Position numbers and translations under genes: made by a program. Below the pieces are notes generated by a model that was not told where the DNA came from, did not search any database, and saw nothing but the letters and a program-made list of their open reading frames with translations. A stretch of DNA of 64,000 bases. Origin: Deltaproteobacteria bacterium (GTDB lineage Bacteria > Myxococcota > Kuafuiibacteriia > Kuafuiibacteriales > Kuafuiibacteriaceae). This document shows positions 25,248 through 60,603 of this stretch, piece after piece (position 1 is the first letter of the stretch; each line of letters starts with the position of its first letter). The DNA is taken from the NCBI GenBank assembly GCA_040218735.1, contig JAVJQW010000017.1, positions 415,416-479,415 on the forward strand, read 5' to 3'.

Positions 25248-26438
25248 GTGCGCATCTGCATCATCGGCGCCGGCATCGCCGGCCTCGTCGCCGCCCGCCA
25301 GCTGAAACGCCGCGGCGCCGACGTCACCGTCCTCGAAGCCGCCGACACCGCCGGCGGCAAGTGCCACAGCCTCCGCCGCTTCGGACGCATCTACGAGCTC
25401 GGGGCGCTCGGCGTCTTCGGGACGTACCACCGCACCCGCGCCTACCTCGACGAGCTCGGCATCGAGCTCACCCCCTGCGACACCCTCGTCGACGCCCGCG
25501 GCGCCCCGGTCCGCCGCGTCCGCCACGGCCCCGAGGACCAAACCTGGTTGCTCGCGCTCGCCGACGAGCTCGGCGATGCCGACCTCGTGACCGACCACAG
25601 CCAGGTCGCCCCCCTCGAGCTGCACCTCCCCATACAGAGCTGGCTCGAACGACGCGGTCTCTGGCCCATCCCGCCGCTCCTCACCTGGGGCTACCAGGCC
25701 TGCGGCTACGGCTTCGTCACCGAGGACATCGCCGCGCTCTACCACCTTCGCATCATGTCGCTGTGTCGGGGCGTCATCGACACCGTGCGCGGCGGTTACC
25801 AAGAGCTCTGCACCCGCCTCGCGGAGACACTCCCGGTTCGAACGTCGTGCGCGGTCCGCCGCATCACCCGCGGCGACACGATCCGTATCACGACCGACGA
25901 AGGCACGACCGAAGCCGACGCCCTCGTCGTCACACCCGCGCCCGGCACCGCGCTCGAGCTTGTGGACGTCGACGACGAAGAACGTGCCGTCCTCGAAGCC
26001 TTCCGGAGCCAGGACTACGTTAGCGCCCTCGTCGAAGCGGAGAACCTCTCCGACGACGTGGGTCTCACCTTCGTCTCCGATCGCCAGACCTCGGCCGACC
26101 GGGGTCATGTCGTGATCTACCTGAAACCCGGAGCCGACCGCCCGCTGTACTCTGTATGGCAGTACAGCACCGGCAACGACGAGGCCGACGCCGCGTGCCT
26201 CGAAGCCGACGTCCGCGATCTCGGTGCGACCTCTGTGCGTACTCTCGCGCGCCGCCGCTGGACGGACTACTTCCCCTACCTCCCCCCCGCCGCGCTCGCC
26301 GCCGGGTTCGGCGTCCGCCTCGACGCTCTCCAGGGCCACCGACGTACGTTCTGGGTCGGCGGCGCCTACTCGATGGAGATCGTCGAGGCCGCAATCCGTC
26401 ACGCCGAGGCCGTCGCCAACACCCACGACTTGGGTTGA
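25248..26438 (+). CDS. FAD-dependent oxidoreductase resembling polyunsaturated fatty acid (linoleate) isomerase PAI
   Basis: GAGIAG Rossmann motif, GGKCHS...GRIYELGA, GYG, GHVVIY, YFP, LQGHRRTFWVG; collinear with the recalled Cutibacterium acnes PAI sequence. Confidence 0.8.
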   Translation: MRICIIGAGIAGLVAARQLKRRGADVTVLEAADTAGGKCHSLRRFGRIYELGALGVFGTYHRTRAYLDELGIELTPCDTLVDARGAPVRRVRHGPEDQTWLLALADELGDADLVTDHSQVAPLELHLPIQSWLERRGLWPIPPLLTWGYQACGYGFVTEDIAALYHLRIMSLCRGVIDTVRGGYQELCTRLAETLPVRTSCAVRRITRGDTIRITTDEGTTEADALVVTPAPGTALELVDVDDEERAVLEAFRSQDYVSALVEAENLSDDVGLTFVSDRQTSADRGHVVIYLKPGADRPLYSVWQYSTGNDEADAACLEADVRDLGATSVRTLARRRWTDYFPYLPPAALAAGFGVRLDALQGHRRTFWVGGAYSMEIVEAAIRHAEAVANTHDLG

Positions 26439-26474
26439 GCGCGACCTGTGACGGTGCGAGGAGTGTCGAGTTCG

Positions 26475-29400
26475 ATGAAGCCCAGCGTACGTTCTCTCGT
26501 CGACCACCTCGTCAGCAACCGCGAGCTGCGTCCTGACCAGCAAGTCTTCCGCTTCCTCGACAACGGTGACGCGGAGGGCCCCGCCACCTGCTGGACCCAC
26601 GGCGAGCTGTACGACAAAGCCGCCGCCGTCGCGCAATACATCGAAGACGAAGGCCTCGTCGGCGAGCGCATCCTGCTGCTCTACCTCCCGTGCGTCGATT
26701 ACGTCGCCGGCTTTGTCGGCTGCCTCGCCGCGGGTGCCGTCGCGGTTCCCGCCTACCCGCCCGACCCCATGCGCCTGTCGCGCACCGTGCCTCGACTCCA
26801 AGCGATCGCCGACGACGCGCAGGTCGCCGCGATGTTCACCACCGCACCGCTGAAGATGATGCTCCCGATGCTCGCGGAGCACGCCCCGAAGCTCGCTTCG
26901 ATGAAGTGCGTCGCGACCGACGAGCTCGACCTTGCGCGCGCTCGCGTTTGGACGCCGAAGCCGGTCGACGGTGACGCCCTCGCGTTCCTCCAGTACACCT
27001 CCGGCTCCACCGGCTCGCCGAAGGGCGTGATGATCACGCAGCGGAACCTCATCGAGCAGACCCGCATCGGCTGCGAGCGCACCGGGGGTACCCACGATAG
27101 TCACGTCGTGAACTGGCTCCCGCAGTACCACGACCTCGGCCTCGTCACCGGCTTCCTCATCCCCATCTACCTCGGCATCCAGTCCACCGTGCTGTCGCCG
27201 ATCGACTTCCTCAAGAAACCGATCCGCTGGATGGATGCGATCTCCAAGTTCGGCGGCACCCACGCGGGCGGCCCCGACTTTGCGTTCGCTCTCTGCGCAC
27301 GCAAGGCCACTCCGGAGGATCTGGAGCGCCTCGACCTGTCGACCTGGCAGTGCGCGTTCAACGCCGCCGAGCCACTACGCGCGAGCACCATCGATCTCTT
27401 CAATGGAACGTTCGCCCCCACCGGCCTCCGCCCCGAGGCGATGATGCCCGGCTACGGCCTCGCCGAAGCGACGATGGGCGTCACGTGGGCGCCGCTGCGC
27501 ACCGAGCCCACTCGCGTCACGGTCGATCCCGACGCCCTCGCCGACGGCCGCGTCGTACGTGCGAACGAAGGCGTCACGCTGTTCGGACACGGCCCGGCCG
27601 GGGACTTCGACGTCGCGATCGTCAACCCGCAGTCCCTCGAACGCGTCGGGCCGGACGCGATCGGCGAGATCTGGGTGCGCGGCCCGAGCGTCGGGCTCGG
27701 CTACTACGGCCGCCCCGAACAGAGCGAAGCCACCTTCGGCGCACGCATCGCCGGCACCGGCGAAGGCCCGTACATGCGCTCGGGCGACCTCGGCACGGTG
27801 CTGAACGGCGAGCTCTACATCACCGGCCGCATCAGCGACCTCATCATCCTGCGCGGCAAGAACTACTACCCGCAGGACATCGAGTACGCGGCCGAGCTGT
27901 CGCACTCCGCCGTGCGCCCCGGGTGCGGCGCGGCGTTCTCACTCGACGTGGACGACGAGGAGCGCCTCTTCGTCGCCTTCGAGACCAAACCCGGCGTCGA
28001 CCCGGACGAAGTCGTCACCGCGATACGCGAGCGCATCGTCGCCGACCACGACATCGCGCCCTACTCGATCCTCCTCCTCGCCCCGCGCTCCGCACCCAAG
28101 ACCTCCTCGGGAAAGATCCAGCGCCGCCGCCTCGCCCGCCAGTACGAAGCCGGCGAGCTCGACGTCGTGCACGTGTGGACGCGCCCCGCCTCCGCCGCGC
28201 CGCGCGTCACCGCGGCGAACCTTCGTGCGTGGCTCGTCGACAAGGTGACCGCGCTGTCCGGCGTGCGCCCCGACGAACACGCGACGTTCGCGAGCTTCGG
28301 GATCGACTCCGCGGAAGGTGTTCGGCTCGTCGCCGAGCTCGAACGCGAAGCCGGCCGAACGCTCAGCCCGAGCGTCATCTACGACCACCCCACGATCGAC
28401 GCGCTCGTCCGCCACCTCGGCGCAAACGGCCACGCGCCGGCGGCCGCGGTCGAAGCGAAGAACGAGCCGATCGCGATCGTCGGCATCGGCTGCCGCATGC
28501 CCTCCGCCGACGGCCCGGACGCCTTCTGGCGCCTCCTCGAGGACGGCGTCGACGCCGTGCGCGAGGTCCCGAAGGACCGCTTCGACGCCGACGCGATCTA
28601 CGACCCGGACGCCACCGCCGCGGGCCGCCTGTCGACGAAGTGGGGCGCGTTCCTCGACGACGTCGATCGCTTCGACGCCGCCTACTTCGGCGTCGCGCCG
28701 CGCGAAGCCGAGACGATCGACCCGCAGCAGCGCCTCCTCCTCGAAGTCACGGTAGACGCGCTCGAGGACGCCGGCATTCCGCCGTCGTCACTCGCCGAGA
28801 CCCACACCGGGACGTTCGTCGGGATCAGCAGCGCCGAGTACGGGATGTTCCAGTTCTCGGATCCGGAGCGCATCGGACCGCACACCGGCACCGGCAGCGC
28901 GATGAGCATCGCCGCGAACCGGATCGCGTACGCGTTCGATCTGCGCGGGCCGAGCTTCGCAGTCGACACCGCGTGCTCCTCGTCGCTCGCCGCGGTGCAC
29001 CTCGCGGTGCAGAGCCTCCGCAACGGCGAGTCGACGCTCGCGATCGCGGGCGGCGTCTCGTTGATCCTCACCCCCGCGATCACGATGAGCTTCTCGCGCG
29101 CCTCCGCGATGGCGGCCGACGGGCGATGTAAGACGTTCGACGCACGCGCGGACGGCTACGTGCGCAGCGAAGGCGTCGGCGTCGTGGTGCTCAAACCGCT
29201 GTCGCGCGCGAAGGCCGACGGCGACCGCATCCACGCCGTCATCCGCGGCTCCGCCGTCGCGCAAGACGGACGCACGAACGGCCTGATGGCCCCCAGCCGG
29301 CGCGCGCAGGAACGCGCGCTCCGCGCCGCGTGCGCCGACGCCGCGGTTCGCCCCGAGGACGTCACCTACGTCGAAGCGCACGGCACTGGCACCGCGCTCG

Positions 29401-34382: not shown

Positions 34383-37300
34383 GCGTCGTCCAAGCGCTCG
34401 AGCAGGCGATCGCCAAGTTATCCGCCGAACAGAAGTCCAAGCTACGCTCGCTCCTCGCGGAGCCCGCAACCCCGATTGCAGTCGTCGGCCTCGCCTGCCG
34501 GATGCCCGGCGACGGCGACACCCCCGAGCGGTTTTGGTCCAACCTCATGACCGGTCGTGACGGCATCGTCGAGATCCCGCGCGACCGCTGGGACGTCGAC
34601 GCCTACTACGATCCGGATCGCTCCGCGCCCGGGAAGATGAGCACGCGGTGGGGCGGATTCCTCCGCGACGTCCGCGGCTTCGACGCCGAGTTCTTCGGTA
34701 TCGCTCCGCGCGAAGCCACGTGGATGGATCCGCAGCAGCGCCTGCTCCTCGAAGTCGTCTACGAGGCGCTGGAGCACGCCGGTCAAGGCGACATCGCCGG
34801 GTCATCGACCGGGGTGTTCGTCGGGGTCTCGGCCAACGACTACAGCCTGTTACCGCGCACCGCGGATCAGCTCGACGCGTACACCGCGACCGGATTGTCG
34901 AACAGCATCCTCGCCAACCGCGTCTCCTACCTGTTCGATCTCGGAGGGCCGAGCGTCGCGATCGACACCGCGTGTTCGTCGTCGCTCGTTGCAACGCACC
35001 TTGCGACGCAGAGCCTCCGCAACGGTGAGTGTGATCTCGCGATCGCCGCCGGCGTGAACCTCATCCTGTTCATCGCGAACTACATCGCCTTCTCCCGCTG
35101 GGGGATGATGGCGCGCGACGGGCGGTGCAAGACCTTCGACCGCCGCGCCGACGGCTTCGTGCGCGGCGAAGGCGGCGGCGCGCTGGTCCTCAAGCGCCTC
35201 CCGGACGCGCTCCGCGACCGAGACCGGATCCTCGCGATCGTGCGCGGCTCGGCGATCAACCAAGACGGCCGCAGCGCCGGGCTCACCGCACCGAACGTCG
35301 GCGCGCAGGTCGACGTGATTCGTCGTGCGCTCGCGGACGCGGACGTTGCACCGTCCGCGATCTCCTACGTCGAGGCGCACGGCACGGGCACGTCGCTCGG
35401 TGATCCCATCGAGGTCGAAGCGCTGTCCGAGGCGTTGGGCCAGGAGGGCCCGCGCGTCGCGCTGGGCGCGGTGAAGAGCCACATCGGTCACCTGGAGGCC
35501 GCGGCCGGCATCGCGGGCCTCGTGAAGACGGTGCTCGCGCTGCACCACGGTGCGATCCCTCCGAACCTGCACTTCGAGTCGCCGAACCCGAACATCGACT
35601 TCGCGTCCACGCGGTTCGAGGTCCCGACCTCACCTCGCGACTGGAGCGACGGCGAGCGATTCGCGGGCGTGAGCTCGTTCGGCTTCGGAGGAACGAACGC
35701 CCACGTCGTCCTGCAGTCCGCGCCCGCGCTCGAACCGATCCCCCCGCGAGCCGGCGTTCGCACGCTGCTCCTCAGCGCAGCGAGTGAAGCCGCGCTCGAC
35801 GCGATGTCCGCGGACTACGCGGCCCGGATCGAAGCCGGCGACGACGCCGTCGTCGAGGGCGCCCGCCTCCGCGCACGCCTCCCGCACCGCCGCGCCGTCG
35901 TCGCGGACACGACAGAGCTCGCGGAGCGGCTGCGCGCGGGGCGCTTCGACGCCGGCGCTTGCGTGCATCGTCCACCGCGGATCGGCCTGGTGTTTTCGGG
36001 GCAGGGCTCGCTGTGGCCGGGGATGGCGAAGGCGCTCGCCGCGCACGACGCGGTGTTCGCCGAACACTTCGCCTCGGTTCCGTTCGACCGCGCCGTGCTC
36101 GATGACGCCGACGCGCTCGCCCGCACCGAGAACGCGCAGCCCGCGCTGTTCGCGTACCAGATAGCGCTCGCCGCGACGCTGCGTTCGCGCGGCGTCGTGC
36201 CCAGCGTCGTGGTCGGCCACAGCGTCGGGGAGATCGCGGCGGCGCACGTGGCGGGCGTGATCGACTTCGCGGAGGCGGTGCGTGTGATCGAGACCCGCGC
36301 CGCGCTCATGCAGACGCAGCACGGACGCGGGCGCATGTTCGAAGCAGCCGCTTCCCCGGCCGAGCTCGAACCCCTCGAACCCGGCGTCAGCGTCGCGGCG
36401 GTCAACGCGCCGGGGCGCACCGTGCTCGCCGGGGAGACCGCGGCGATCGAAGCCGCGTACCGACGACTCGACGAGGCGCGGATCGCGGTGCGCTGGCTCG
36501 ACGTCGCCTACGCGTTCCACGGCCCCGGGATGCGCGCGCTCGAAGACAGCATGATAGCGAAGCTGGGCGCGGTGCGGACGTCACCGCCGTCGCTCGCGAT
36601 CGAGTCCACCGTCGGACCGAGCGCCACGTTCGACGCCGCGCACTGGGCGAAGAACCTCGGCCGACCGGTCCTCTTCGCCGACGCCGTCGAGCGGATGTTC
36701 GCTCGCGGCGTCGACGTCGTGATCGAAGTCGGACCGAGCCCGGTGCTCAACCGTTCGATCCAATCGATGGCGCCGTCCGGCGTGACGGTCCTCCCCAGCA
36801 TTCGTCGAGCCCCCGGCGAGCCGCTCGCGTTCGAGCGCCTGCTCGCGCGCCTCTTCGTCGCCGGCGCCGACGTCACGTTTTCGACGCCATCCGCCGCGCA
36901 GACCACGGCGCCCCCGCCCTACCCTTGGCAACGGACGGCGTACTGGACCCGCGCGCCGACGTCGCAGCCTTCGGACGCTTCGCTTCACCCGCTGTTGGGG
37001 CGCCGCGTTCGTTCGCCCGCGCTCCAGGCGGAGGTGTTCGAGGCCGTGCTCACCGCGGACGGCTTCATCACGGACCACCTACTGGGCGACCGGGTCGTCG
37101 TCCCGATGACGGCGTGGGTCGAGCTCCTCCGCGCCGCCGCCGCGACGTTGTACGGTGGCGACGCGCACCGCATCGAAGCACTCGCGCTGCTCTCGCCGGT
37201 GACGCTGGAAGCCCCCGCGCGCGTTCAGCTCGTCGTCAACGCGGGCGCCGCGACGCTGCGCCAACAGACTGAAGACGACGTCACGTCCTGGCCAACGGTT

Positions 37301-50006: not shown

Positions 50007-51298
50007 ACGACGACCAGCCGTTGAAGCGCCTCGCCAAGGGGCTCGGCCGCCGCACCCTCGTCACCGCGAAGCTCGCAGGCCGCGTGGGCCTGAAGTACGC
50101 GCGGCGCGGCGCGAAGGACGACGCGGATCCGAAGGCCGTGGAGCGCGCGATCGCTACGGTGAAGGAGCTCGGTGCGCTCAAGGGCCTCACGATGAAGGTC
50201 GGGCAGATGGCGAGTTACCTGCCGGGCGTGATGCCGCCGGAGGCGCAGAAGGTGTTTGCGTCGCTCCAGTCCGAATCGACGCCGATGGCGTACGAGCAGA
50301 TCGCTCAGGTCGTCACCAAGGAGCTCGGCCGGCCGATCGACGAGCTGTTCGAGTCGTTCGAAGAGACCCCGATCGCGGCGGCGTCGATCGGCCAGGTGCA
50401 CCGCGCGCGCTTCGAAGGGCGCGAGGTCGCGGTGAAGGTCCAGTACCCCGAGATAGAAGAGCTGATCCGCAGTGACCTGAAGCTCATGGGAATGCTCACG
50501 AAGATGATGGTCGTCGGCACCCCGAACGACGGCGCGGCGATCGCCGAAGAGCTGCGATCGAGAATGCTGGAGGAGTGTGACTATACGCTGGAGGCCGAGC
50601 GCCAGCGCCTCTTCAAGCGCCTGATCGAGAGTCAGGCGAATTGCCGCGTCCCCGAGGTGATCTCGGAACGCTCCTCACGGCGTGTGCTCACCACCGCGTT
50701 CGCCGAAGGGGTGAGCTTCGACGCGTTCGCGGACGCGTCGAGCCAAGAGGAGAAAAACGCCGCCGCCGTCGCCATCTTCCGCGCGACGTTCAACACGCTG
50801 TTCCGCTACGCGATCTACAACGGTGACCCCCACCCCGGTAACTACCGATTCGCCCCCGACGGGCACGTGGTGTTCCTCGACTTCGGCTGCGTGCGCGCCT
50901 TCCCCAAACAGTTCATCGACGACTGGAAGCCGATGGAGCTCGCGATGCTGAACCGCGACAAGGCGGAGCTGCGGCGCGTGTTCCCGGCGACGAACATGAT
51001 GGGGGTGCCGGAGGATCGGTTCGACTGGGACCACCACTGGGAGACGATGGAGTACGTCTGCCGGCCCTACATCGCGCCCCAGCCCTTCACGTTCACGCAG
51101 ACGTACGTCGAGGAGAGCTACGAGCGCATCCTCTTCAACAAAACCACGATGAAGATGCTGAACACCCCTCCGGAGTGGCTCCTGATCAACCGCGTCCACT
51201 GGGGGCTCAACTCCGTGCTCGGGCGGCTGAACGCCACCGCCGACTGGGGTGCGCTGTGGCGCGAATTCGTGTCGTCCGAAACGACCCCTGCGCAGTGA
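50003..51298 (+). CDS. ABC1/AarF/UbiB-family atypical kinase
   Basis: [34 protein letters not shown] overlap with the synthetase stop. Confidence 0.92.
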
Positions 51299-51328
51299 TT
51301 CTCTCCGAGTCTTGTTACAGTCCCCGCC

Positions 51329-53413
51329 ATGAGTGAGGTCGTTCCGCTTCCGAGGTCCACGCCCGACGACGAGGCGCCGGATCCGATCGCCAAGGCGGTC
51401 GCGCGCGGGGTGAAGCAGCGCCGAAAGCTCGAGCTCGAGAAACGTCGTGCCGCGGTCCGCGCCGCCGAGACGACCGTCCCCGACATCGAGTCGACGGAGG
51501 GGCTGGAGGAGCTCGAAGCGCTCCTGAACGACCCGCTCGCGAAGGCTTGGCTGAACGAGGGCTCGATGTCGCGCGTCGACGTCGGGAAGGCGCGCAAGGA
51601 GGGACGGGTCGCGCCGATGCCGCGACGTAAGAAGGTCGGCGGGAAGTCGGAGAGCTCCGGAGCGCCGCCGATGGCGCGTCACGTCGACTTCGACGCGAGT
51701 GTCTTCGCTGCGCTCACGCGGCTGTTCTTCTGGGTGTGGGGGCTGACGCGTTACTTCGGCGGGATCCTCATCGACAAACTCGTCTTCCGCGACGACATCC
51801 ACCGGCGCGCGGTGCGGCTCCGCCGAACGTTGGAGTCACTGGGTCCGACGTTCATCAAGCTCGGCCAACAGCTCTCGGTGCGCGCGGACGTGCTGCCGTA
51901 CGAGTACTGCGCGGAGCTGTCGAAGATGCTCGATTCGATCGCGCCGTTCGACAGCAAGCTCGCCATCGCGGAGATCGAACGAACGACCGGGCGCAAGGTC
52001 ACCGACATCTTCGCCATCTTCGATCCGGAACCGATCGGCTCGGCGTCGCTCGCGTGTGTCTACCAGGCGATGCTCCACAACGGGGAGCGCGTCGCGGTGA
52101 AGGTGCGCCGCCCGAAGATCGGCAAACGCCTCGCCGCGGATCTTCGCGCGCTCGACTGGCTCATGGCCTACGCGGAGCTCGTCGCGTTGGTGCGCCCGGG
52201 GCTCACGCGCAACTTGAGCATCGAGCTCGTGGCGATGCTGATGGAGGAGCTCGATTTCGGGCGCGAGGCTCGTTACACCGACATCTTCCGTCGTCGCGCC
52301 AAGGAGAAGGGTCAAGACTACGTCACCGCCCCGCGCATCTACCGCGAGATCTCGAGTGAGTCTGTGATGGTCTCGGAGTTCGTTGGCGGTGTCTTCCTTT
52401 GGGAGATCCTCAACGCGCTCGACCGCGGCGACGAGGAGACCCTGAGGCAGATTCGCGAGAAGGACATCGAGCCCAAGGAGATCGCCATCGCGATGGCGGA
52501 GCTCTTCAATTGGGAGTCGATGGAGAGCCTGCTCTTCCACGCCGACCCGCACCCCGCGAACATCATCTGCAAGCCGGGGAACCAGATCGTCCTGATCGAC
52601 TTCGGTTCGTGCGGGCGCTTCTCCAGCAAGACACGCCGCCTGTTCCACCAGCTGCACCACTACATGAACAACGAGGACGTGCAGGGGATGGTGGAGTGCT
52701 CCATCTCCATGCTCGAGCCGCTCCCGCCGATCGACCTCGACCGGTTCACGAAGGAGGTCGAGAGCCTCTACTGGGAGCTCATGTACGCGTCGAAGGACGG
52801 CCACGCGGAGTGGTGGGAGAAGGCGTCGGGTGTGTTGTGGATCCGCTTCGCGGGGTTGGCGCGTCGCTACAACATCCCGATGAACCTCGACACGATGCGT
52901 CTGTTCCGCGCGACGTTCCTCTACGACACGGTGATGTTCCGGCTGTGGAAGGACCTCGACCTCGACGTCGAGTACCAGCGCTACTTCGAAAAGCTCGGGC
53001 GCCGCGCCAAGAAACGCGTCACAAAGGCCTGGAACAAACGTGCGCGCAAGGGGCTCACGAACAAGGACTACATGCAGGTCGAAGAGATGCTGCGGATGGG
53101 GAACCAGATCATCGCGCGGCTGCAGCACATCCTCGACACGCCGCAGCACAACTTCGCGAGTGTAATCGGCAAGGCGGCGTACGGCGTGTCGATGGGTTTG
53201 AAGGCCCTGATCCTCGGCTTCACGGTGCACCTGACCGCGGTGCTCGGCGTGTCGGTCTACGCGAAGGCCATGGACCACTCGATCACGATGACGGAGGCGT
53301 TCATGCGGCTCGTCGGTTCTCCGGCCTACCAGGCGGGTGTGCTCGTCGTGGGCCTGATCGTGATACGCAAGGCGCTGATGCGCTTCGAGGACATCGACGT
53401 CCGCAAGAGCTGA
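51329..53413 (+). CDS. Second ABC1/AarF/UbiB-family atypical kinase with C-terminal membrane helices
   Basis: LGPTFIKLGQ, GSASLACVYQA, VAVKVRRP, HADPHPAN, DFG, two hydrophobic C-terminal segments. Confidence 0.92.
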   Translation: MSEVVPLPRSTPDDEAPDPIAKAVARGVKQRRKLELEKRRAAVRAAETTVPDIESTEGLEELEALLNDPLAKAWLNEGSMSRVDVGKARKEGRVAPMPRRKKVGGKSESSGAPPMARHVDFDASVFAALTRLFFWVWGLTRYFGGILIDKLVFRDDIHRRAVRLRRTLESLGPTFIKLGQQLSVRADVLPYEYCAELSKMLDSIAPFDSKLAIAEIERTTGRKVTDIFAIFDPEPIGSASLACVYQAMLHNGERVAVKVRRPKIGKRLAADLRALDWLMAYAELVALVRPGLTRNLSIELVAMLMEELDFGREARYTDIFRRRAKEKGQDYVTAPRIYREISSESVMVSEFVGGVFLWEILNALDRGDEETLRQIREKDIEPKEIAIAMAELFNWESMESLLFHADPHPANIICKPGNQIVLIDFGSCGRFSSKTRRLFHQLHHYMNNEDVQGMVECSISMLEPLPPIDLDRFTKEVESLYWELMYASKDGHAEWWEKASGVLWIRFAGLARRYNIPMNLDTMRLFRATFLYDTVMFRLWKDLDLDVEYQRYFEKLGRRAKKRVTKAWNKRARKGLTNKDYMQVEEMLRMGNQIIARLQHILDTPQHNFASVIGKAAYGVSMGLKALILGFTVHLTAVLGVSVYAKAMDHSITMTEAFMRLVGSPAYQAGVLVVGLIVIRKALMRFEDIDVRKS

Positions 53414-53414
53414 G

Positions 53415-56400
53415 ATGGCTAGCAAGTTCGACGCAGCGATACGCCGGTACGCGGAAGCCACGATCCGCCACCGGATCCTCACCTCGGTCATCGCGCTCGT
53501 CGTGGTGATCGCGACGGGCCTCGGCACCGCCGAGCTCGCCTTCGACACGCGCTACCGCATCTGGTTCGAGGAAGGCAGCGACGCCCTCGTCACCTACGAC
53601 GCGCTGCTGCAGCGCTTCGGCAGCGACGACCAAGCCGTCATCGCCTTCAAGGACGACGACGGAACGCTCCTCGACAACCCGTCGCTCCTCTCGATCCGAC
53701 GCCTCACCGACGCGCTGTGGAAGGTCGAAGGCGTCAAACGCGTCGACACCCTCGCGAACTTCTCGATCGTCCGCGCGAGCCGGGTGGACCTGGAGTCACC
53801 CGCCTTCGTCGTCACGTCGAAGTACGTAGCAGCGGCGGGGGACCGCGGACAAATCGTGGTGTGGTCGACCGAGGATTGGTCGCGCCGGGAGCTCCTCGGT
53901 CACGACGGCGTCGTCGAGCACCTCGTCGCAAACGCGGCGGGTGACACGCTCTACTCGGGGGGCGTCGACCGCACCGTTCGCGAGTGGAACCTCGAGACCG
54001 GTGAGCTCGTCCACGCGTTCCGCGGGCTCGTCGAGAGCGTGAGCACGCTGGCGCTCTCACCCGACGAGGCGACGCTCTACGCTGGCTCGTACCGGGCGCT
54101 GTACCCGATCGACCTCGCGGCGAAGACGCCGCCGAAGGCGTGGACCGGGTTCGAAGACTTCGTCACCCACGTCATCGCCTCGTCGGCGGGTCTCTTCGCG
54201 GCGAGTCAGGACGTCCACCGTCTGGGGCCCGACGGTGCCAAGCTCGCGACGTTCGAGACCGACGCACGCTACGTGCACGACGTCGTGGTCGCCGGCGGGG
54301 CTGTCGTGGTCGCGACGTCGGACGGAGCGCTCCTCCGCTTCGCGGTCTCCGACGGCGCGAAGGTCGTGCTCGAACCGGAATCGAGCCTCGGCGTCCGCTC
54401 GCTCGTCGCGCTCCCCGACGGGCGCCGCGTCGCCGCCGGCATGACGGACGGGAGCGTGCGCGCGTACGACCTCGAAGGTGAGCCGCCGATCGTGACGCGC
54501 ATCCACGGCGACTGGGTCGTGGACCTGACGACCGACGCCAACGGCGTCGTCTACTCGGCTTCGCGCGACCGCAACATCGCGCAGCACAGCCCCGGTGAAG
54601 GACCACGCATCTCGGTGCTCACCGCGCACCGAGCCGCGGCGCGCCGCGTGCTGCTCGGACCGGACGAGCGCCTCTACAGCCTGGGCGACGACGGTGACGT
54701 CTACGTGTGGGCCGGCGAGCCGCTGTCGCTCGAGGCGCGTTTGTTGCGCGTGGCGCCGCGCGACGTCGCGGACGCGGTGACGCTCGAAGGGCCGGCGGTC
54801 GGGCGCCTCCGCGCCATCAACGAGTTCCGTTTCCCGGTCGAGCTGCGCGTCGGCGGTCAGAAACAAGTCGTGCACGGCGCGAAGGCGGCGGTGCTCGAAG
54901 GGCTCCCCGTCCCCGTACCGAACCCTTGCGACGACGACAGCAACTGCGGCCCCGGGCAGTACTGCGACTACGAACAGGACGAGCCGAGCTGCGTGGGGCA
55001 GACGGTCGTCGAGGCTTACCGGCCCGGGACCGAGGTGCGACTGTGGGCGGGGGAGGCGTTCCTCGACGCCGACAAGGAGACGACGATCCGCCTCCCCTCC
55101 GACGAGCCGTTCAGCGTGGGGCCCGCGACGGAGAGCCCGCTCGATCCGCGCACGCGCGTCGCCGCTCTGGTCGAGGCCTACCCACAGCCCGCGATGAAGA
55201 AAGCGCTCGAGCAGGTGCTCGGTGCGTACGCTTCGGTGGGTGATACGTTCATCTCGCCGAAGGTCGCGGACCAACTCGACGAGGCGCTCGGCGCGGACGA
55301 CACCGTCCCGCAGGAGGGTCGTGAGTTCCTGACCACGTTGGAGCAGGCGAAACTCAGCCCGCTCCGACTCCCCACGCAGCCCTTCCGTCTCGCCGAGATG
55401 GAGTACCACATGATGCGCGCGCCGAACCCACCGGCGCTCGGCGCGGTGCTCGACGACAACGGCGACACCACGATGATGATCGTGTCGCTCCACGAGCCGC
55501 CGCCCGAGGAAGCGCTCACGCGGCCCTTCGCGGTGCGCCACGCGATCGAAGATCTCACCGCGCAGGAACGCGCGGAGACCGGGCACGAGTACCACGTCAT
55601 CGGCGGGACGATCATGGACACGTGGCTCGAGGACTACGCGCGGCGCGACCTCGAACAGCTCGGCCCGTTGTTCCTCGCGGTCGTGGCGCTGCTGCTCGGC
55701 GTCGTCTACCGACGCATCTCCGGGGTGCTCGTCCCGCTGGGGCTGGTCGGCCTGGCGGTCATCATCGCGACGGGCTCGGCGGGGTGGTTGGGCGCTTCGC
55801 TCAACAACATGACCGTCGCGGTGCCGCACGTGATCCTCGCGTCGTGCATCGGCGACGCGGTGCACATCTTCAACGCGTACGTGGATCGTGTGCGCGGAGG
55901 GCTGACGCCGCACGAAGCGACGGTCGAGGCGATCAGCGCGAACTTCGCGCCGTGTCTGTGGACCAGCGCCTCGACCGCGATCGGGTTCTTCTCGCTGTCG
56001 ACCAGCCCCATCCAACCCGTGCGTGCGTTCGGGTGGATGGCCGGCATCGGCGTGGTCATGGCGTTCCTCCTCAGCGTGACGGTGCTGCCCGCCATCACGG
56101 CGACGCTGCCCGCGCCGAAGAAGAAGGCGTCGGCGTCCGGCGGTGGCGGCTTCGACGCGTGGATCGACGACAAGCTCACGACGCTCGCGGGCGGCGTGAA
56201 CCGCTCGACAGGCGCGATCGTCTTCCTCGCTGTCTTCTTCCTCGGGCTCGCGGTGTACGGCCTCACGAAGGCGGAGATCGACACCAACGATCTGAAGTTC
56301 TTCGCGGAGGAGGCGCCGTTCCGTCAGGGCGCGGACTTCGTGGAGGACAACATCAGCGGCTCGTACGCGCTGCAGCTCATGGTGGACCTCGGCGGACAGG

Positions 56401-57290
56401 GGCGCATCCGCGAGGTGAAGTACCTGCGTGAGGTCGACGAGCTGCGCGCGCACATCGAACAGACACCCGAGGTGAAGAGTGTCACCTCCATCGCCGGGAC
56501 GCTGAAGACGATGAACCGGGTGATGAGTCACGACCTCGTCGAGGACTACCGGCTCCCCGAAGACGACAAACGCGCGTCGAGTTACTACGACGCGTACACC
56601 TTCAGCCTCCCGGCGGGGTTGGACCTCACGAATCGGGTGAGCGCAACGGAGGGGGCGACGGTGCTCGACGTCCGGATGTCACACGGAGCGTCCAGCTGGT
56701 TCCTGGACTGGGGCTCGAAGCTCGACGCGTGGACGTCGAAACACCTCGAGAACATCGACGTCCGGATCACGGGCAAGTCTTGGCTCTACACGAACATGGC
56801 GAAGGACGTCGCGGAGGGGTTCCTCGCGAACGTCGGCTCCGCGATCCTCCTGATCGCCATCATGATGTTGTTTCTGGCCCGCGGTTTCCGGGTCGGCGTG
56901 CCGGCGATGCTGGCGAACACGATCCCGATCATGACGACGGTCGGCGTGCTCGGCCTCCTGGAGGTCGCGCTCGACATCTCGATCCTGGTCTCCTGCTGCG
57001 TGGCGCTCGGCGTGGTCGTCGACGACACGACGCACTTCGTCGCGAAGTACAAGAAGGCGCTGTCGAAGGGCGCGAGTCACGACAGCGCGGTGGAAGCGAC
57101 CATCCGCGAGGCCGGCAAGGCGATGGTCTTCACGACCATCATCCTCGTCTGTGGGTTCTCGATGCTCGCGTTCACGGACTTCGCAGTGAACCGCAACTTC
57201 GGGTTGGTCGTTTCGGTGATGCTGACGATGGGCGCGCTCTTCGATCTCACCGTCCTCCCTGCGCTGATGAAGCTCACCTACAAGGAGTAG
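53415..57290 (+). CDS. MMPL/RND-family transporter with inserted WD40 beta-propeller
   Basis: TM1 then FGSDD, two TM blocks with IGDAVH and VVDDTTHF. WD40 motifs (LLGHDGVV...SGGVDRTVREWN, HGDWV...SASRDRNI, TAHRAA...SLGDDGDVYVW) in the first periplasmic loop. Confidence 0.9.
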   Translation: MASKFDAAIRRYAEATIRHRILTSVIALVVVIATGLGTAELAFDTRYRIWFEEGSDALVTYDALLQRFGSDDQAVIAFKDDDGTLLDNPSLLSIRRLTDALWKVEGVKRVDTLANFSIVRASRVDLESPAFVVTSKYVAAAGDRGQIVVWSTEDWSRRELLGHDGVVEHLVANAAGDTLYSGGVDRTVREWNLETGELVHAFRGLVESVSTLALSPDEATLYAGSYRALYPIDLAAKTPPKAWTGFEDFVTHVIASSAGLFAASQDVHRLGPDGAKLATFETDARYVHDVVVAGGAVVVATSDGALLRFAVSDGAKVVLEPESSLGVRSLVALPDGRRVAAGMTDGSVRAYDLEGEPPIVTRIHGDWVVDLTTDANGVVYSASRDRNIAQHSPGEGPRISVLTAHRAAARRVLLGPDERLYSLGDDGDVYVWAGEPLSLEARLLRVAPRDVADAVTLEGPAVGRLRAINEFRFPVELRVGGQKQVVHGAKAAVLEGLPVPVPNPCDDDSNCGPGQYCDYEQDEPSCVGQTVVEAYRPGTEVRLWAGEAFLDADKETTIRLPSDEPFSVGPATESPLDPRTRVAALVEAYPQPAMKKALEQVLGAYASVGDTFISPKVADQLDEALGADDTVPQEGREFLTTLEQAKLSPLRLPTQPFRLAEMEYHMMRAPNPPALGAVLDDNGDTTMMIVSLHEPPPEEALTRPFAVRHAIEDLTAQERAETGHEYHVIGGTIMDTWLEDYARRDLEQLGPLFLAVVALLLGVVYRRISGVLVPLGLVGLAVIIATGSAGWLGASLNNMTVAVPHVILASCIGDAVHIFNAYVDRVRGGLTPHEATVEAISANFAPCLWTSASTAIGFFSLSTSPIQPVRAFGWMAGIGVVMAFLLSVTVLPAITATLPAPKKKASASGGGGFDAWIDDKLTTLAGGVNRSTGAIVFLAVFFLGLAVYGLTKAEIDTNDLKFFAEEAPFRQGADFVEDNISGSYALQLMVDLGGQGRIREVKYLREVDELRAHIEQTPEVKSVTSIAGTLKTMNRVMSHDLVEDYRLPEDDKRASSYYDAYTFSLPAGLDLTNRVSATEGATVLDVRMSHGASSWFLDWGSKLDAWTSKHLENIDVRITGKSWLYTNMAKDVAEGFLANVGSAILLIAIMMLFLARGFRVGVPAMLANTIPIMTTVGVLGLLEVALDISILVSCCVALGVVVDDTTHFVAKYKKALSKGASHDSAVEATIREAGKAMVFTTIILVCGFSMLAFTDFAVNRNFGLVVSVMLTMGALFDLTVLPALMKLTYKE

Positions 57291-57294
57291 CTCG

Positions 57295-57666
57295 GTGTTC
57301 GCCCGACCGCGCTGGCTGATGCTCCTCTCCGCGGCGCTCGCGATCCCGTACGGCGTCGCGTGCCTCGTCGCGCCCGAGTGGTGGATGGGCGTCTGGGAGA
57401 TCCCGGTCGCGTCGGGCGCGCTGCTCGCCCGGATGTACGGCGGCCAGGTGCTGGGCTTCGGCGTGCTGAGTTTGCTGGCGAGCGGACTGGATGCGGGCGA
57501 TGGGTTGCGCGCGATCCTGCGTGGGTTCTGCTTCGTGGATGCGGTGAGTTTCGGCTTGGCGCTGTGGGCGGTGACGACCGGACAGGTCGGCGCGTCGGGT
57601 TGGATCGACGTCGCAGGATTCTTCGCCTTGTCCTCAGGTTTCGGCTACTACGCCCTCAGAGCGTAG
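57295..57666 (+). CDS. Small integral membrane protein (about 4 TM; DUF4345-like)
   Basis: Hydrophobic 123 aa ORF, ARMYGG motif, GGAG upstream, 4 nt after the MMPL stop. Confidence 0.7.
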   Translation: MFARPRWLMLLSAALAIPYGVACLVAPEWWMGVWEIPVASGALLARMYGGQVLGFGVLSLLASGLDAGDGLRAILRGFCFVDAVSFGLALWAVTTGQVGASGWIDVAGFFALSSGFGYYALRA

Positions 57667-58954
57667 GCGGATCCGTGTGCGGGAAATGCGAGCAGATCTT
57701 ACAGCTCTCTTCGTAGGGCAGCATCTGCTTCCCCGTCCGTAGCTGTGCCTCGCGGATCTCGTCGCGCAAGAGGTTCGCCGGGCACTGCGGTCCGTGCGCG
57801 GTGGCGTGCGGGAAGAGCTTCCGCATCCGTCCCATCGCGACGTCGAAGCCGTCCGTCAGGACGTTGCCGGTGGACATCGACAGCATCGGGCACGGGACGA
57901 GGTTCCCGGACGGGTCGACGTGGATGAAGTTGTTTCCGCCCGCGCCGCACCCGAAGGTCTCGGCGTCCTCGATCGAGGTGCGCGTCGAGATGGCCGGCAG
58001 GTGCGCGTACTCCTTGGCGGTGTTGATGCGCTTCTGAAACGCCTGCAGCTCGTAGAGCTCGTCGTCGCGCAGACGCTCTTCCGGATGGTCGATGAACGCA
58101 CCCGCCGCGATGGGATCGAAGATCTCCACGATCCCCGCCCCGAGCTGGTGCGCGAGCTCCATGTACTTCATCAGGCCGCCGTCGCGGATGACGTCACGCG
58201 TGGCGGTCACCACCAGGCACGGGAACACCCCCGCCTGGTTGAACAGCGCGACGGCCTTCGCGGCCTCGTCGAACGCCTTCGGGCTCTTGCGGAACTCGTT
58301 GTGTTTGTCGGGCTCGTAGTGGTCGAGGCTCACCGCGGCCGCCGTGAGGCCGGCGTCCTTGAGTTGTTTCGCCTTCGTCGTCGTGAGCTTGAAGCCCGTC
58401 GTCACGACCCACATGTCGCTTCGGTCGCGACCGTGTTCGATCAACCGGCAGAGATCGTCGAACCGCAGCAGCGGCTCCCCGCCGACGATCGAAAACGCCC
58501 CCGTCCCGATCTCCTGGAAGCGGTCCACGACCATCTTCCACTCGTCCAGGCTCATGGCGTTCTTCTGGTTGAGCGCCTCGATCGCGTAGCAGTGATCGCA
58601 GCGGTACATACACGCGTCGGTCACCGCGATGTCGACGGTGGGGATGAACGGCGTCTCGCGCCCCTCTTCGAACCCGAGCAGCCGCGCCTCGATCATGCGG
58701 TCGAAGCCCGGCCCCGGGTAGCTGGGGACGTACATGTCGAAGAAGATGCGGTCGCCGAAGCGCGCGTACTTCTTCGTCGAGAGCATCTTGAGGAACGCGC
58801 GTTGGCGCTCCAGCTCGGACTTCGGGTGCGGCTTGCGGGCCTCTTTCAGCTCGCCGAGGCGGCTCCGGTTCTTCGCGAGCAGCGAGAACGCGCGGCGGGC
58901 GAAAGACAGGTCCGTGCGGATCTTGTCGAAGCCAGTGATCTGCTCCGGAACCAT
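57656..58954 (-). CDS. Radical SAM protein with SPASM/twitch-like C-terminal domain
   Basis: CMYRCDHC, GGEPLL, GCGAGG...HVDPSGNLVPC and further C-terminal cysteines. Confidence 0.92.
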   Translation of the reverse strand: MVPEQITGFDKIRTDLSFARRAFSLLAKNRSRLGELKEARKPHPKSELERQRAFLKMLSTKKYARFGDRIFFDMYVPSYPGPGFDRMIEARLLGFEEGRETPFIPTVDIAVTDACMYRCDHCYAIEALNQKNAMSLDEWKMVVDRFQEIGTGAFSIVGGEPLLRFDDLCRLIEHGRDRSDMWVVTTGFKLTTTKAKQLKDAGLTAAAVSLDHYEPDKHNEFRKSPKAFDEAAKAVALFNQAGVFPCLVVTATRDVIRDGGLMKYMELAHQLGAGIVEIFDPIAAGAFIDHPEERLRDDELYELQAFQKRINTAKEYAHLPAISTRTSIEDAETFGCGAGGNNFIHVDPSGNLVPCPMLSMSTGNVLTDGFDVAMGRMRKLFPHATAHGPQCPANLLRDEIREAQLRTGKQMLPYEESCKICSHFPHTDPPTL

Positions 58955-58976
58955 CGGATTTTCACGGTAGCACGGT

Positions 58977-59741
58977 TCACCGCGATTGCATCTGGGCGAT
59001 CGAGAACAGGTCGTCCGCGAGCTTCAGGCCCGTCCTGTACTGACCGAACTTCAACGTCGTCGTGCGCCCCGACTTCAGGTTCTCCACGGCGATCTGCTCC
59101 GGCCGCCACCCGGCGTCGGTCTTCGTATACCCGGTGACGACCAAGCGCTTGAGCGCCCGGCCCGACCGGTCGAAGTACGCAATCGACAGCGGCACCGCGC
59201 GCTCGGCGTCCACGCAGGTGATGAGCTTCGCGTAGTTCGAACGCGGCGCCTTCGGCGTCTGCTCGACCTTCGTGCACTTCTTGCCCTGCACCTCCCCCGC
59301 CCCGACGACCCGATGGTCGTAGTCCCGCGCGCGCGGGAGCGTCAGCTGCTCGATGTCGATCTCGCTCCCGAGGAAACGCGCCGTCCGGTCGGCGCCCGAC
59401 ACACGCCGGACCTCGTTCATCTGCGCCATGTAGATCCAGATCTCGGCCGGCGCTCCGGCGGGCTCGCGCACCAGCAGCGCCGACCCCTTCAGGTGCTCGG
59501 GCGCCACGAACCGCACGAGCATCGCGAGGTCGTCGCCGGACTCCTTCGCGAGCTCGACGAGGCGGTAGTCCTTCGTCTCCCCGTTCTTCTCGCGGACCTG
59601 CATCTCGAGGCGGACGCGCTGCCCGCCGAACCCGGAGAAGTTGGCTTCGACCTTGTCGGCGAGCGCCTGCGCGGACTCTGCGTGAGCAGACGGCGCGGCG
59701 AAGAGAACCAGCGCGCCGACGAACGTGGCCGCGGCTCGCAT
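58977..59741 (-). CDS. Outer-membrane lipoprotein-sorting (LolA-like, TP0789-type) protein
   Basis: Signal peptide AHA, RFVAPEHLKGSALL, WIY...VRRV, FLGSEI, YFDRSGRALK, DDLFS. Confidence 0.85.
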   Translation of the reverse strand: MRAAATFVGALVLFAAPSAHAESAQALADKVEANFSGFGGQRVRLEMQVREKNGETKDYRLVELAKESGDDLAMLVRFVAPEHLKGSALLVREPAGAPAEIWIYMAQMNEVRRVSGADRTARFLGSEIDIEQLTLPRARDYDHRVVGAGEVQGKKCTKVEQTPKAPRSNYAKLITCVDAERAVPLSIAYFDRSGRALKRLVVTGYTKTDAGWRPEQIAVENLKSGRTTTLKFGQYRTGLKLADDLFSIAQMQSR

Positions 59742-59745
59742 ACGA

Positions 59746-60525
59746 TCAGTTCTTCTGGAGCTGGCTGACGGTGAACATCTTCGGCGACAGCTTCAGCTTG
59801 AGCTTGTAGTTGCCCGCCTTCAGCACCGTCTTCCGCTTGTTCTGCATGTTCTTCATCACCGAGACGTGCGCGCGCCAGTAACCCGCTTCCTTCGAGAACT
59901 TGTCGGCCTCGAGGACCTTCAGCAGCTTGCCAGCCTTGTCGTAGAACTCGGTCTTCATCACGTACAGGTTCGTCTTGTGGAAGTACGCGATCGTCTTGCT
60001 GTAACCCGAGCCCGGAAACTTCGGCTTCGTCTCGATCTTCCAGGTGTCCTCGCCGCGCACCTTCTCCGATCCGAGGTTCTTGTAGTCGTACCGATCGAGT
60101 GAGTCGGCGGTGAGATCTTCGTAGCTGTACTCGCTGCCCTTGAACGAGGCGCTCTTGCTGCCGCCGCCGATCTGCTTCACCTGCCGCGTCTCCGAGAGGT
60201 AGAGCCAGCGCGACTCCTCCTTGCCTTCGGTCTCGTGGGTCAGGAGCGCGGTGCCCTTGCTGTCCGGCGGCGCAATGAAGCGGATGAGCGTCTTCGTCGT
60301 GTCGCCGTTGTCCTTCGTCCCCTCGACCGCGAACTGCTTCATCTTGTACGTGACGGTCTTCTTCCCGGACGCGTCGTACAGCTCCATGATCGAGTCGAAG
60401 CGCTGCCCGGCGAACCCCTTCTGGGTGTCGTCGGCCTTCTTGGCGATGTCGTAGCCGGACGGGTCGGCCGCCAGCGCGACGGCGGGCAGCAAGGTGAGGC
60501 AGAGGGTAGGCAGGACGGCTCGCAC
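59746..60525 (-). CDS. Outer-membrane lipoprotein-sorting (LolA-like, TP0789-type) protein, paralog
   Basis: GGAGG 8 nt before GTG 60525; signal peptide ALA; RFIAPPDSKGTALL, WLYL, FKGSEYSYEDL, FYDKAGKLLK. Confidence 0.88.
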   Translation of the reverse strand: MRAVLPTLCLTLLPAVALAADPSGYDIAKKADDTQKGFAGQRFDSIMELYDASGKKTVTYKMKQFAVEGTKDNGDTTKTLIRFIAPPDSKGTALLTHETEGKEESRWLYLSETRQVKQIGGGSKSASFKGSEYSYEDLTADSLDRYDYKNLGSEKVRGEDTWKIETKPKFPGSGYSKTIAYFHKTNLYVMKTEFYDKAGKLLKVLEADKFSKEAGYWRAHVSVMKNMQNKRKTVLKAGNYKLKLKLSPKMFTVSQLQKN

Positions 60526-60603
60526 GATGAACACCTCCAGGCGGTAGCGACTCGGCACGGTTGCCCGTATCTTTGGGCGAGTCAAGACGACGGCTTGGAC
60601 GCC

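Follow-up and report, generated by a model that had tools for sequence, protein, structure and literature searches.

The closest described counterpart of the assembly line reported here is the PtTamA/PtTamH pair, in which a fatty acid is adenylated onto a carrier protein and leaves as a primary amine. In the available part of PMC9594044, PtTamH is an N-terminal class III transaminase (TA) fused to a thioester reductase (TR) resembling acyl-ACP (acyl carrier protein) reductase (AAR), and in that of bioRxiv 10.1101/2025.08.11.669332, C12-TamA is reductively offloaded and aminated by TamH to give a C12 amine. We describe a gene cluster in a 64-kb stretch of deltaproteobacterial DNA (the window, the final 64 kb of contig C23 of genome G000; 11.6 Mb, 70 contigs, 96% complete) that shares with this pair the adenylation of a fatty acid onto a carrier, the TA-TR order, the predicted release of a primary amine, and the Lys, Cys and GxxGxxG signatures. 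As far as those sources describe it, TamH is a separate protein that works in trans on an unmodified C12 acyl-ACP, whereas the TA-TR of the window is fused in cis behind a peptidyl carrier protein (PCP), three polyketide synthase (PKS) modules and a cysteine-specific nonribosomal peptide synthetase (NRPS) module. The window TA-TR would work in a TamH-like manner, yet it is not a TamH orthologue. With some reserve, we favour reading the cluster as a linear hybrid assembly line for an exported 2-(alkadienyl)-4-(aminomethyl)-thiazoline lipid, and we hold more firmly to the narrower statement that such an amine is at least an intermediate.

Membership in a tambjamine or prodiginine pathway was ruled out, as the window carries no bipyrrole genes. 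Curacin- and kalkitoxin-type PKS-NRPS lines reportedly cap a polyketide chain with a thiazoline. The Cys modules of BmdB (7ly7), 6lta, the pyochelin structure 7emy and EpoB (5t7z) share with the window the order heterocyclisation (Cy), adenylation (A, Cys) and PCP and the motifs DxxxxD and SQTPQVxLD; unlike them, the window has no oxidase (Ox), methyltransferase (MT) or thioesterase (TE) domain, releases its chain by TA-TR to an aminomethyl group, takes its starter from a FAAL domain and is accompanied by lipid-type accessory genes. PigE (4ppm; PMC8341465) matches both release domains, but in the available text it is a stand-alone protein with the reverse domain order, and no other pig genes occur in the window. 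A carrier-PLP1-SDH layout (Burkholderia E1TD76) was tabulated in 2013, in the part available with no product assigned, and none of the 15 Aminotran_3 layouts in the non-redundant table of that paper has C/Cy-A-CP followed by TA and SDH (PMC3870968). The main text of PMC12766979 contains neither 'thiazol' nor 'aminotransferase', and no characterised cluster or product was found in the open-access literature, a scope that excludes most subscription chemistry journals and MIBiG. Each part is known; what we did not find described in that literature is TamH-type cis release behind a Cy-Cys module, a 4-aminomethyl-thiazoline lipid, or A domains interrupted by a cyclic di-GMP (c-di-GMP)-type sensor, as in relatives of the window protein. 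Judged from its sequence, the assembly line itself is real, intact and rare.

The cluster comprises eight plus-strand open reading frames (ORFs) followed by three on the minus strand. An earlier note, made from the sequence alone, had described eight co-oriented, tightly packed genes and a convergent three-gene unit, and all 11 ORFs lie where it placed them. Neighbouring genes overlap by 4 nt at 34379, by 8 nt at 39333 and by 4 nt at 50003, and the remaining gaps are 1-36 nt. GC content in this region is about 69%, and the GC3 of the 11 ORFs is 0.84-0.94; together with the size and gene content of the genome, the GC content suggests a myxobacterium. Pfam cut-offs were passed by wide margins, so the domain calls are not due to chance. 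A second genome, G011 (same family, different genus), holds a syntenic orthologous cluster at 36-69% identity. The features of the window are as follows; the flanking genes and the exporter are included.

20352..22415, minus strand: candidate outer-membrane partner of the export module; homologs lie beside MMPL/LolA genes on contig C4 of G000 and in the gammaproteobacterial locus L012; membership uncertain.
22345..22878, plus strand: AhpC/TSA redoxin, probable left-flank member; 57% homolog at the same relative position in G011.
24294..24524, minus strand: DUF6200 small basic protein, copy 2; Pfam 28.7 bits against a cut-off of 26.9.
24524..24901, minus strand: DUF6312-like small protein; its 40% homolog in G011 scores as DUF6312.
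24924..25166, minus strand: DUF6200 small basic protein, copy 1; the family adjoins ABC1b-type kinases in 10 of 11 other loci read.
25248..26438, plus strand: FAD flavoprotein of amino-oxidase fold; closest solved relative 2b9w.
26475 (ATG) or 26448 (GTG)..34382, plus strand: PKS1, FAAL-ACP and module 1, ketosynthase (KS)-acyltransferase (AT, methylmalonyl type)-dehydratase (DH)-enoylreductase (ER)-ketoreductase (KR)-ACP.
34379..39340, plus strand: PKS2, module 2, KS-AT(malonyl type)-DH-KR-ACP.
39333..50006, plus strand: PKS3-NRPS, module 3 KS-AT-DH-KR-ACP, then Cy-A(Cys)-PCP-TA-TR, in one 3557-aa frame.
44208..47309, plus strand: heterocyclisation module Cy-A(Cys)-PCP within PKS3-NRPS; A domain uninterrupted, A8-A10 distance 82 residues.
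47358..48887, plus strand: class III pyridoxal phosphate (PLP)-dependent transaminase domain (TA); Asp in VDEIQ, Lys3007.
48948..50003, plus strand: AAR-type thioester reductase domain (TR); GxxGxxG, Cys3509 aligned to the 6jzq catalytic Cys.
50003..51298, plus strand: ABC1/UbiB atypical kinase a (soluble); motifs intact; 61% in G011.
51329..53413, plus strand: ABC1/UbiB atypical kinase b with two C-terminal hydrophobic segments; 69% in G011.
53415..57290, plus strand: RND transporter of the MMPL/HAE3 type whose first periplasmic loop holds a WD40 propeller; 41% paralog on contig C4.
57295..57666, plus strand: small hydrophobic protein of no known family; 48% in G011.
57656..58954, minus strand: radical SAM enzyme; CxxxCxxC at 115-122 and further C-terminal Cys; 59% homolog at the G011 cluster.
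58977..59741, minus strand: LolA-like (PF17131/DUF1329) periplasmic carrier 1.
59746..60525, minus strand: LolA-like (PF17131/DUF1329) periplasmic carrier 2; GTG start with GGAGG.
60604..63789, plus strand: probable lipoprotein without a known family; the C4 MMPL/LolA set lies between two of its paralogs; cluster membership uncertain.

The megasynthase genes run through about 8,000 codons without a frameshift or stop, and every catalytic motif checked in the assembly line is intact. Pfam places AMP-binding, ACP, KS, AT, DH, ER, KR and ACP domains in PKS1, KS, AT, DH, KR and ACP in PKS2, and KS, AT, DH, KR, ACP, condensation, AMP-binding, PCP, Aminotran_3 and a Shikimate_DH-like tail in PKS3-NRPS. 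The best 11 solved relatives of the loading domain include named FAALs (E down to 7e-134; closest structures 7r7e-g, E ~1e-133, and 3kxw), and its top NCBIfam matches are FAAL models, at scores below the whole-protein cut-offs of those mycobacterial models. All three modules carry the KS C-H-H triad, AT GHSxG, ACP Ser, DH His and Asp, and KR LDD and Tyr; the active Ser is present in all four ACPs (loading ACP included) and in the PCP, and the ER has its NADPH loop. AT1 contains IDVVQP, GHSMG and VASH, and AT2 and AT3 contain GHSVG and YAFH, fingerprints that we take to mean methylmalonyl for AT1 and malonyl for AT2 and AT3; the KRs are presumably B-type. The ER Tyr lies in ALGIYP and is assumed here to predict a 2S methyl group. 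In alignment, DH1 is short and divergent in its second half. With motifs present throughout, the module plan of the earlier note (a FAAL loader, a first module with a VASH AT and DH-ER-KR, and two further modules with YAFH AT, B-type KR and DH) is borne out.

The Cy domain carries DLLILD (DxxxxD) and SQTPQVWLD, and the A-domain code is DLYNMSLIWK, which we take to be Cys-type. Among solved structures, the Cy-A-PCP stretch is closest to 6lta (E ~1e-215) and the bacillamide NRPS BmdB (E ~1e-213); motifs, code and structural matches agree with the earlier proposal that this module forms a thiazoline. Pfam and NCBIfam scans of the megasynthases revealed no Ox, MT or TE domain, and the A8-A10 spacing is 82 residues. 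Residues 3206-3557 of PKS3-NRPS match the aldehyde-forming AAR 6jzq (E 2.5e-17) and also PigE 4ppm; GxxGxxG reads GAKGNIG, and Cys3509 falls on the AAR catalytic Cys. The TA is N-terminal to the TR, with K3007 as its catalytic Lys, and both domains match the PigE model NF053554, at 251 bits versus a cut-off of 850. By itself a TA-TR is common: 125 of the 150 best representatives match the TA-TR only, and the others are fused to FAAL-ACP or PKS. A TA-TR also ends pure PKS proteins or FAAL-(ACP) proteins (P0024, P0025, P0064, P0066, P0068-P0071, P0081, P0134, P0153 and L013:3290-12682; P0067, P0072, P0146 and P0160), which points to a general cis amine-release unit. Two proteins, P0026 and P0176, have about 1,000 further residues after the TA-TR; those of P0026 include PEP-utiliser/pyruvate-phosphate-dikinase-type Pfam domains, and this protein is named from Nocardia.

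By collinearity, the core would be R-CH2-CH(CH3)-CH=CH-CH=CH-(thiazolin-2-yl)-4-CH2NH2, or R-C11H17N2S; for a C16:0 starter we calculate C26H48N2S, [M+H]+ 421.3611. The corresponding [M+H]+ values are 365.2985 for a C12:0, 393.3298 for a C14:0 and 445.3611 for a C18:2 starter; a thiazole would be 2.016 lower, and the C16:0 aldehyde would give 420.3295. The earlier note had proposed the same core, and the motifs, the fingerprints of G011 and the TamH-order didomain back it as a deduction from collinearity.

The G011 cluster preserves this architecture. Its order is flavoprotein (36%), PKS1 (45%), PKS2 (41%), PKS3-NRPS (50%), ABC1a (61%), a degenerate radical-SAM-like ORF, ABC1b (69%) and the small membrane protein (48%), and it also holds DUF6312 (40%), AhpC (57%), two DUF6200 genes and the radical SAM enzyme (59%). 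AT, KR, ER and ACP fingerprints are of the same types, every DH in the two orthologues retains its His and Asp, and the A code, DLYNFSMIWK, is again Cys-type, with two positions differing from the window. The retention of gene order and all fingerprints at 41-50% megasynthase identity argues for selection. A PUFA (polyunsaturated fatty acid) synthase of PfaD/PfaA/PfaBC type lies between the radical SAM and AhpC genes of G011, directly upstream of the cluster (G011:C2:458707-475777, L091-L092); its PfaBC-like gene is in two frames near the start, possibly through an assembly indel. The degenerate ORF between the ABC1 genes (G011:C2:505003-506007; L093:10003-11007) lacks CxxxCxxC, is 24% identical to the window enzyme and has no Pfam match.

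Comparison with G011 also moves the limits of the cluster. The minus-strand genes at 24294-25166 belong to it, as probably does the gene at 22345-22878, and the span becomes about 24294 (perhaps 22345) to 58954, with the exporter a looser addition. The earlier note had described an apparently complete cluster at 25248..60525; the left limit lies further out, at the DUF6200 and DUF6312-like genes. On the right, the window reaches the end of its contig at position 64000, beyond which no sequence is available.

This assembly line is rare within the phylum. Of 401 phylum genomes, three matched a PCP-TA query at E 1e-60, and the line occurs in G000 and G011 only; in the third match (G184:C1:1353459-1373811, L105-L106), FAAL-ACP and TA-TR are encoded by two genes, a TamA/TamH-like pair that diverges from a trans-AT PKS. 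The same-genus genome G001, only 75% complete, gave no match with these queries. Among the matches listed in a metagenome scan, mostly generic aminotransferases, there was no Cy-A-TA-TR locus, and the two best loci have TA-TR genes beside FAAL genes; none of the five records from a plasmid search carries the line. One near-identical copy of the window megasynthase, P0001, exists in another assembly (97-100% per domain).

The terminal unit defines a wider family. The TA-TR region was searched against proteins of 1,956-6,225 aa, and the best 2,226 candidates were scored, giving 27 matches at E 1e-20, 23 of which end in Cy-A-PCP-TA-TR (P0001 and 22 others). Most of the 22 relatives (16) are single FAAL-(ACP)-Cy-A-PCP-TA-TR proteins of 2,700-3,100 aa; four are PKS-linked (one a partial protein, with its PKS part on cluster mate P0034), and two, P0005 and P0013, have two Cy-A modules before the TA-TR, predicting bis-heterocycle aminomethyl products. 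Cy DxxxxD, the Cys-type code, TA Lys and TR Cys are kept in 22/22, and TA Lys and Asp are invariant in all 23 aligned sequences. This conservation, together with the 16 single FAAL-primed proteins, suggests that acyl-thiazoline-CH2NH2 is the conserved core. In a quick TA tree (midpoint root, SH-aLRT without bootstrap), the TA domains of the family, the window and one fragment (24 rows) fall on one side of a branch with SH-aLRT 100, opposite 31 other TA-TR rows. Hosts are named as Chromatiaceae/Chromatiales metagenome-assembled genomes (MAGs) in the case of the P0012 cluster; P0002 comes from a deltaproteobacterial MAG and L012 from a gammaproteobacterial one. Gene neighbourhoods cover two of the 22 relatives, G011 and L012.

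Most of these relatives differ from the window in one respect: their A domain is interrupted. The A8-A10 distance is 269-306 residues in 16 of the 22 (P0003, P0005, P0007-P0010, P0012, P0014-P0016 and P0018-P0023; the L012 insert is at L012:8756-9718), versus 81-87 in the other six and 82 in the window. The insert, of about 190-225 residues, is a tandem PilZ-type unit between A8 and A9 that begins right after an LVAYV-type boundary. Thirteen of the 16 insert-bearing proteins were scanned with Pfam PilZ, of which nine pass the cut-off, one falls just below it and three have no match, and a profile built from seven PilZ positives recovers six divergent inserts (E 1e-13 to 1e-15). RxxxR and (D/N)xSxxG, presumably c-di-GMP-binding motifs, occur at a fitting distance in seven of the 16 inserts; one more has RxxxR alone, and eight have neither pair. 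A model of the L012 insert (pLDDT 80.5, 17 sequences) shows two beta-rich units, and its top matches are the PilZ c-di-GMP receptors MotI, PlzA, VCA0042, YcgR and MrkH (E 2e-8 to 1e-5). In the available text of PMC8341866, an L(V/A/I)(A/G)(Y/F) boundary marks a8-a9 interruptions of A domains, and the inserts described there are methyltransferases, in contrast to the PilZ type found here; 'PilZ' and 'c-di-GMP' have no occurrences in its main text. More broadly, no PilZ domain within an NRPS or within an interrupted A domain was found described in the open-access literature searched.

Receiver domains (REC) accompany some of these proteins. P0007 and P0008 have one at the N terminus, and the L012 operon reads REC-REC-MMPL, LolA-like, outer-membrane candidate, REC-histidine kinase and REC-FAAL-NRPS (L109:11603-19254 and L012:1-12859; G061:C5:22371-39254, minus strand), so that receivers sit on both the lipid transporter and the synthetase. 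Since both sub-clades include PilZ members, the insert may have been lost in the window lineage; on the TA tree, insert history needs 3-4 changes, whose direction is not fixed. A bolder reading of these data, which we think unlikely to hold in full, is that this is an undescribed family of lipid-amine synthetases in which c-di-GMP would gate the A domain of most members through a PilZ hinge insert (some also through a receiver), that the products would be second-messenger-controlled lipid signals, and that the window would encode a polyketide-extended, ungated version.

Among the accessory genes, the flavoprotein bears on the starter. It has an FAD-binding motif and a single full-length solved relative, 2b9w (E 1.6e-27 over residues 2-376; the next matches, at E 6e-10, cover the FAD motif only), which we take to be the P. 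acnes polyunsaturated fatty acid isomerase PAI. In the available part of PMC13365329, PAI makes t10,c12-CLA (conjugated linoleic acid). PAI-like homologs occur in 14 of the 401 phylum genomes, and of 14 places beyond the window and G011 (flanks of 1.5 kb in 13 of them), six are FAAL-fused or FAAL-adjacent, one is in frame with a KS and seven are neither. At L231, L232, L233, L234, L236 and L242 the PAI-like flavoprotein is fused with FAAL and/or ACP or lies directly upstream of FAAL. This linkage to FAAL and the PUFA synthase of G011 favour action on the fatty-acyl starter, which the flavoprotein probably modifies, over thiazoline oxidation. Pyridine formation of the flavoprotein-dependent caerulomycin type was ruled out on two grounds: KR and DH are present in the upstream module, and a terminal C domain is missing. 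A homolog search of the flavoprotein returned only three proteins from 8,000 scored candidates, an ESM atlas search returned generic amino-oxidase clusters only, and a single-sequence AlphaFold model (pLDDT 35.9) was unusable. Between P0206 and P0207, putatively from near-identical genome assemblies (their contigs have the same length), the flavoprotein is only 87% identical, versus 97-100% per domain for the megasynthase P0001; its gene possibly changes faster than the megasynthase.

The radical SAM enzyme has C115/C119/C122 and scores 65.8 bits for PF04055 (cut-off 29.5), and it reached no NCBIfam subfamily cut-off among the 25 models listed; its query matched six of the 401 genomes, only G011 closely (59%). 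The DUF6200 query matched 17 of 401 genomes; of 16 places outside G000 and G011, 11 were read, and in ten of them an ABC1b-type kinase lies alongside, mostly in PKS or NRPS-like clusters. The loci L210-L219 hold such DUF6200-ABC1b pairs within trans-AT PKS and NRPS-like clusters. The DUF6312-like protein of the window has no Pfam match at E 1e-6, and no paper naming DUF6200 or DUF6312 was found in the open-access literature.

The export genes are more loosely tied to the synthase. TIGR00921 is the best model for the MMPL protein (183 bits, below its cut-off of 351.9), which also matches PF03176; the LolA-like proteins match PF17131. A paralogous set on contig C4 (G000:C4:101712-116685, L107) contains the MMPL (41%) and LolA-like (53%) proteins and counterparts of the 20352-22415 and 60604-63789 proteins around a sensor kinase, in the form of WD40-MMPL, LolA-like, an outer-membrane candidate, two large lipoprotein paralogs and a dCache hybrid kinase. 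As two paralogs of the 60604-63789 protein flank this set, that protein goes with the export module rather than the synthase. The 20352-22415 protein has no Pfam or NCBIfam match, and a DUF1302 atlas score of 0.81 is a weak lead only. In the available part of PMC6394551, AmeABCD of Castellaniella defragrans is suggested to export hydrophobic monoterpenes from the cell, and the layout described there shares with the window an HAE3/MMPL RND transporter, a DUF1329 protein of the LolA superfamily and a partner of propeller type; its outer-membrane protein has a candidate counterpart in the window. The window differs from it in that the WD40 propeller is fused into the RND protein, there are two short LolA-like genes, the parts are scattered on both flanks, and the outer-membrane candidate has no DUF1302 Pfam match. 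The AmeABCD-like layout would indicate a hydrophobic cargo, not an envelope location, and the exporter may not be dedicated to this cluster.

Assembled from these parts, the proposed pathway would start with the FAAL adenylating a medium- or long-chain fatty acid and loading it onto the first ACP, the PAI-like flavoprotein possibly having moved or conjugated its double bonds beforehand. Module 1 would add methylmalonyl and reduce it fully, modules 2 and 3 would each add malonyl and halt at the E-enoyl stage, and the Cy domain would condense and cyclise cysteine to a thiazoline on the PCP. The TR would then take the thioester onto Cys3509 and release an aldehyde with NAD(P)H, which the adjacent TA would aminate to CH2NH2. 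Either this amphiphile or a product of its tailoring by the radical SAM enzyme might then leave the inner membrane aided by the ABC1 kinases and DUF6200 proteins and be exported through the AmeABCD-like MMPL-LolA-outer-membrane route. Within this explanation, the product most likely acts as a regulated surface or extracellular lipid. The earlier note had suggested an envelope or signalling lipid from the lipid-handling genes; the MMPL/LolA part of that argument carries less weight than supposed, given the C4 paralogs, the lack of such genes near the G011 cluster and the export out of the cell suggested for AmeABCD, and the PilZ and receiver relatives are better support for a regulated or signalling product, although the window copy has neither domain. 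For the window copy itself we consider a signal or envelope lipid and a secreted bioactive compound about equally likely.

Several observations weigh against the assembly line's reading as the source of an exported thiazoline lipid-amine. Gene content, intact motifs, synteny and family are observed directly; every chemical step and the starter, tailoring, export and role are deduced from the sequence. TamH has been shown to act on simple acyl chains only, versus a heterocyclic PCP thioester here. The residues R88, F168 and F193, which we assume to be the substrate residues of PAI, are not kept in the flavoprotein (a gap, Cys and Leu by manual count, in an alignment that is weak near 88), which keeps its isomerase activity putative; eight of the 14 other PAI-like places have no FAAL inside the short flanks read, and a genome search of G000 gave no match to a PfaD-type PUFA synthase. 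(G000 does have eight desaturase matches.) The window A domain has no PilZ insert and the window protein no receiver domain. Finally, no MMPL or LolA gene lies in the 100 kb around the G011 cluster (G011:C2:435001-535000), and the only MMPL match of that genome is 24% identical and about 330 kb from the cluster.

The free thiazoline amine may be an intermediate only, with the flavoprotein or radical SAM enzyme yielding a thiazole or an altered diene and/or the amine being acylated, condensed or phosphorylated (the last by the ABC1 kinases), and we regard this as a serious possibility, though short of even. G011 retains the radical SAM enzyme, the flavoprotein and both kinases along with the megasynthases, none of the four takes part in forming the core, the radical SAM enzyme has no close homolog in the 399 other genomes searched, and the TamH amine is condensed further in tambjamine. 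Bacillamide BmdC is said to be a trans-acting flavoprotein working on a Cys module. The caerulomycin flavoprotein, which acts in trans on a Cys module in the available account of that pathway, counts in the same direction. The window cluster, however, contains no acyltransferase, ligase or methyltransferase gene, PAI-like homologs track FAAL rather than Cy modules, and L012, the one minimal member whose neighbourhood was read, has no such tailoring genes. Chemistry that departs from collinearity, with a DH or KR skipped or release at the aldehyde or alcohol stage, would instead give a hydroxylated chain or a thiazoline-4-carbaldehyde or carbinol. Aldehydes and alcohols of thiazoles and thiazolines exist in nature, DH1 is, as noted, short with a divergent second half, and motifs do not prove activity; against this, DH His and Asp are kept in both orthologues and the TA Lys and Asp are invariant in 23/23 sequences, and we consider such an outcome improbable.

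The role of the product also has a rival reading. Alkenyl thiazolines are bioactive, and a curacin/kalkitoxin-like alkenyl-thiazoline cation could be a diffusible antibiotic, cytotoxin or predation metabolite, with the transporter serving efflux or self-protection; this, too, we hold to be possible but not the likelier case. The patchy distribution of the line (the three PCP-TA genomes and the two complete loci noted above) would fit, DUF6200-ABC1 pairs flank trans-AT PKS and NRPS-like clusters too, and AmeABCD-type systems are suggested, in the available part of PMC6394551, to release hydrophobic compounds into the environment. The PilZ-type insert in 16 of 22 relatives, the receivers in two of them and the kinase/receiver operon of L012 look instead like second-messenger control, and the cluster shows no recognisable gene for resistance or for a duplicated target. 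That the cluster is silent or decaying and yields no product seems to us very improbable: a low-GC3 AlbA-domain gene at the left edge and the absence here of the PUFA synthase of G011 would fit decay, but the 8,000 open megasynthase codons, the intact motifs and the near-identical copy P0001 argue against it.

If the thiazoline lipid-amine reading is right, the 16 single-protein members should allow the chemistry to be assayed with a single purified enzyme supplied with a fatty acid, cysteine, ATP, NAD(P)H and an amino donor, and a portable thioester-to-amine release unit would be useful in assembly-line engineering. Allosteric control of an NRPS by c-di-GMP, if true, would be a new tie between secondary metabolism and bacterial lifestyle signalling; the window copy itself has no insert.

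A few further features of the locus deserve mention. A promoter and terminator scan of 50000-61000 gave nothing above chance. By composition (GC 69.5% versus 68.8%; tetranucleotide distance rank 139 of 150 random 35-kb stretches), recent horizontal acquisition is neither supported nor excluded. An AlbA_2/Schlafen-domain gene with a low GC3 of 0.65 (23094-24290, minus strand) sits between the AhpC and DUF6200 genes and has no homolog at the matching place in G011. Directly downstream of the outer-membrane candidate, window positions 12774-20324 (minus strand) encode a 2,116-aa TPR protein and an LbH-repeat protein.

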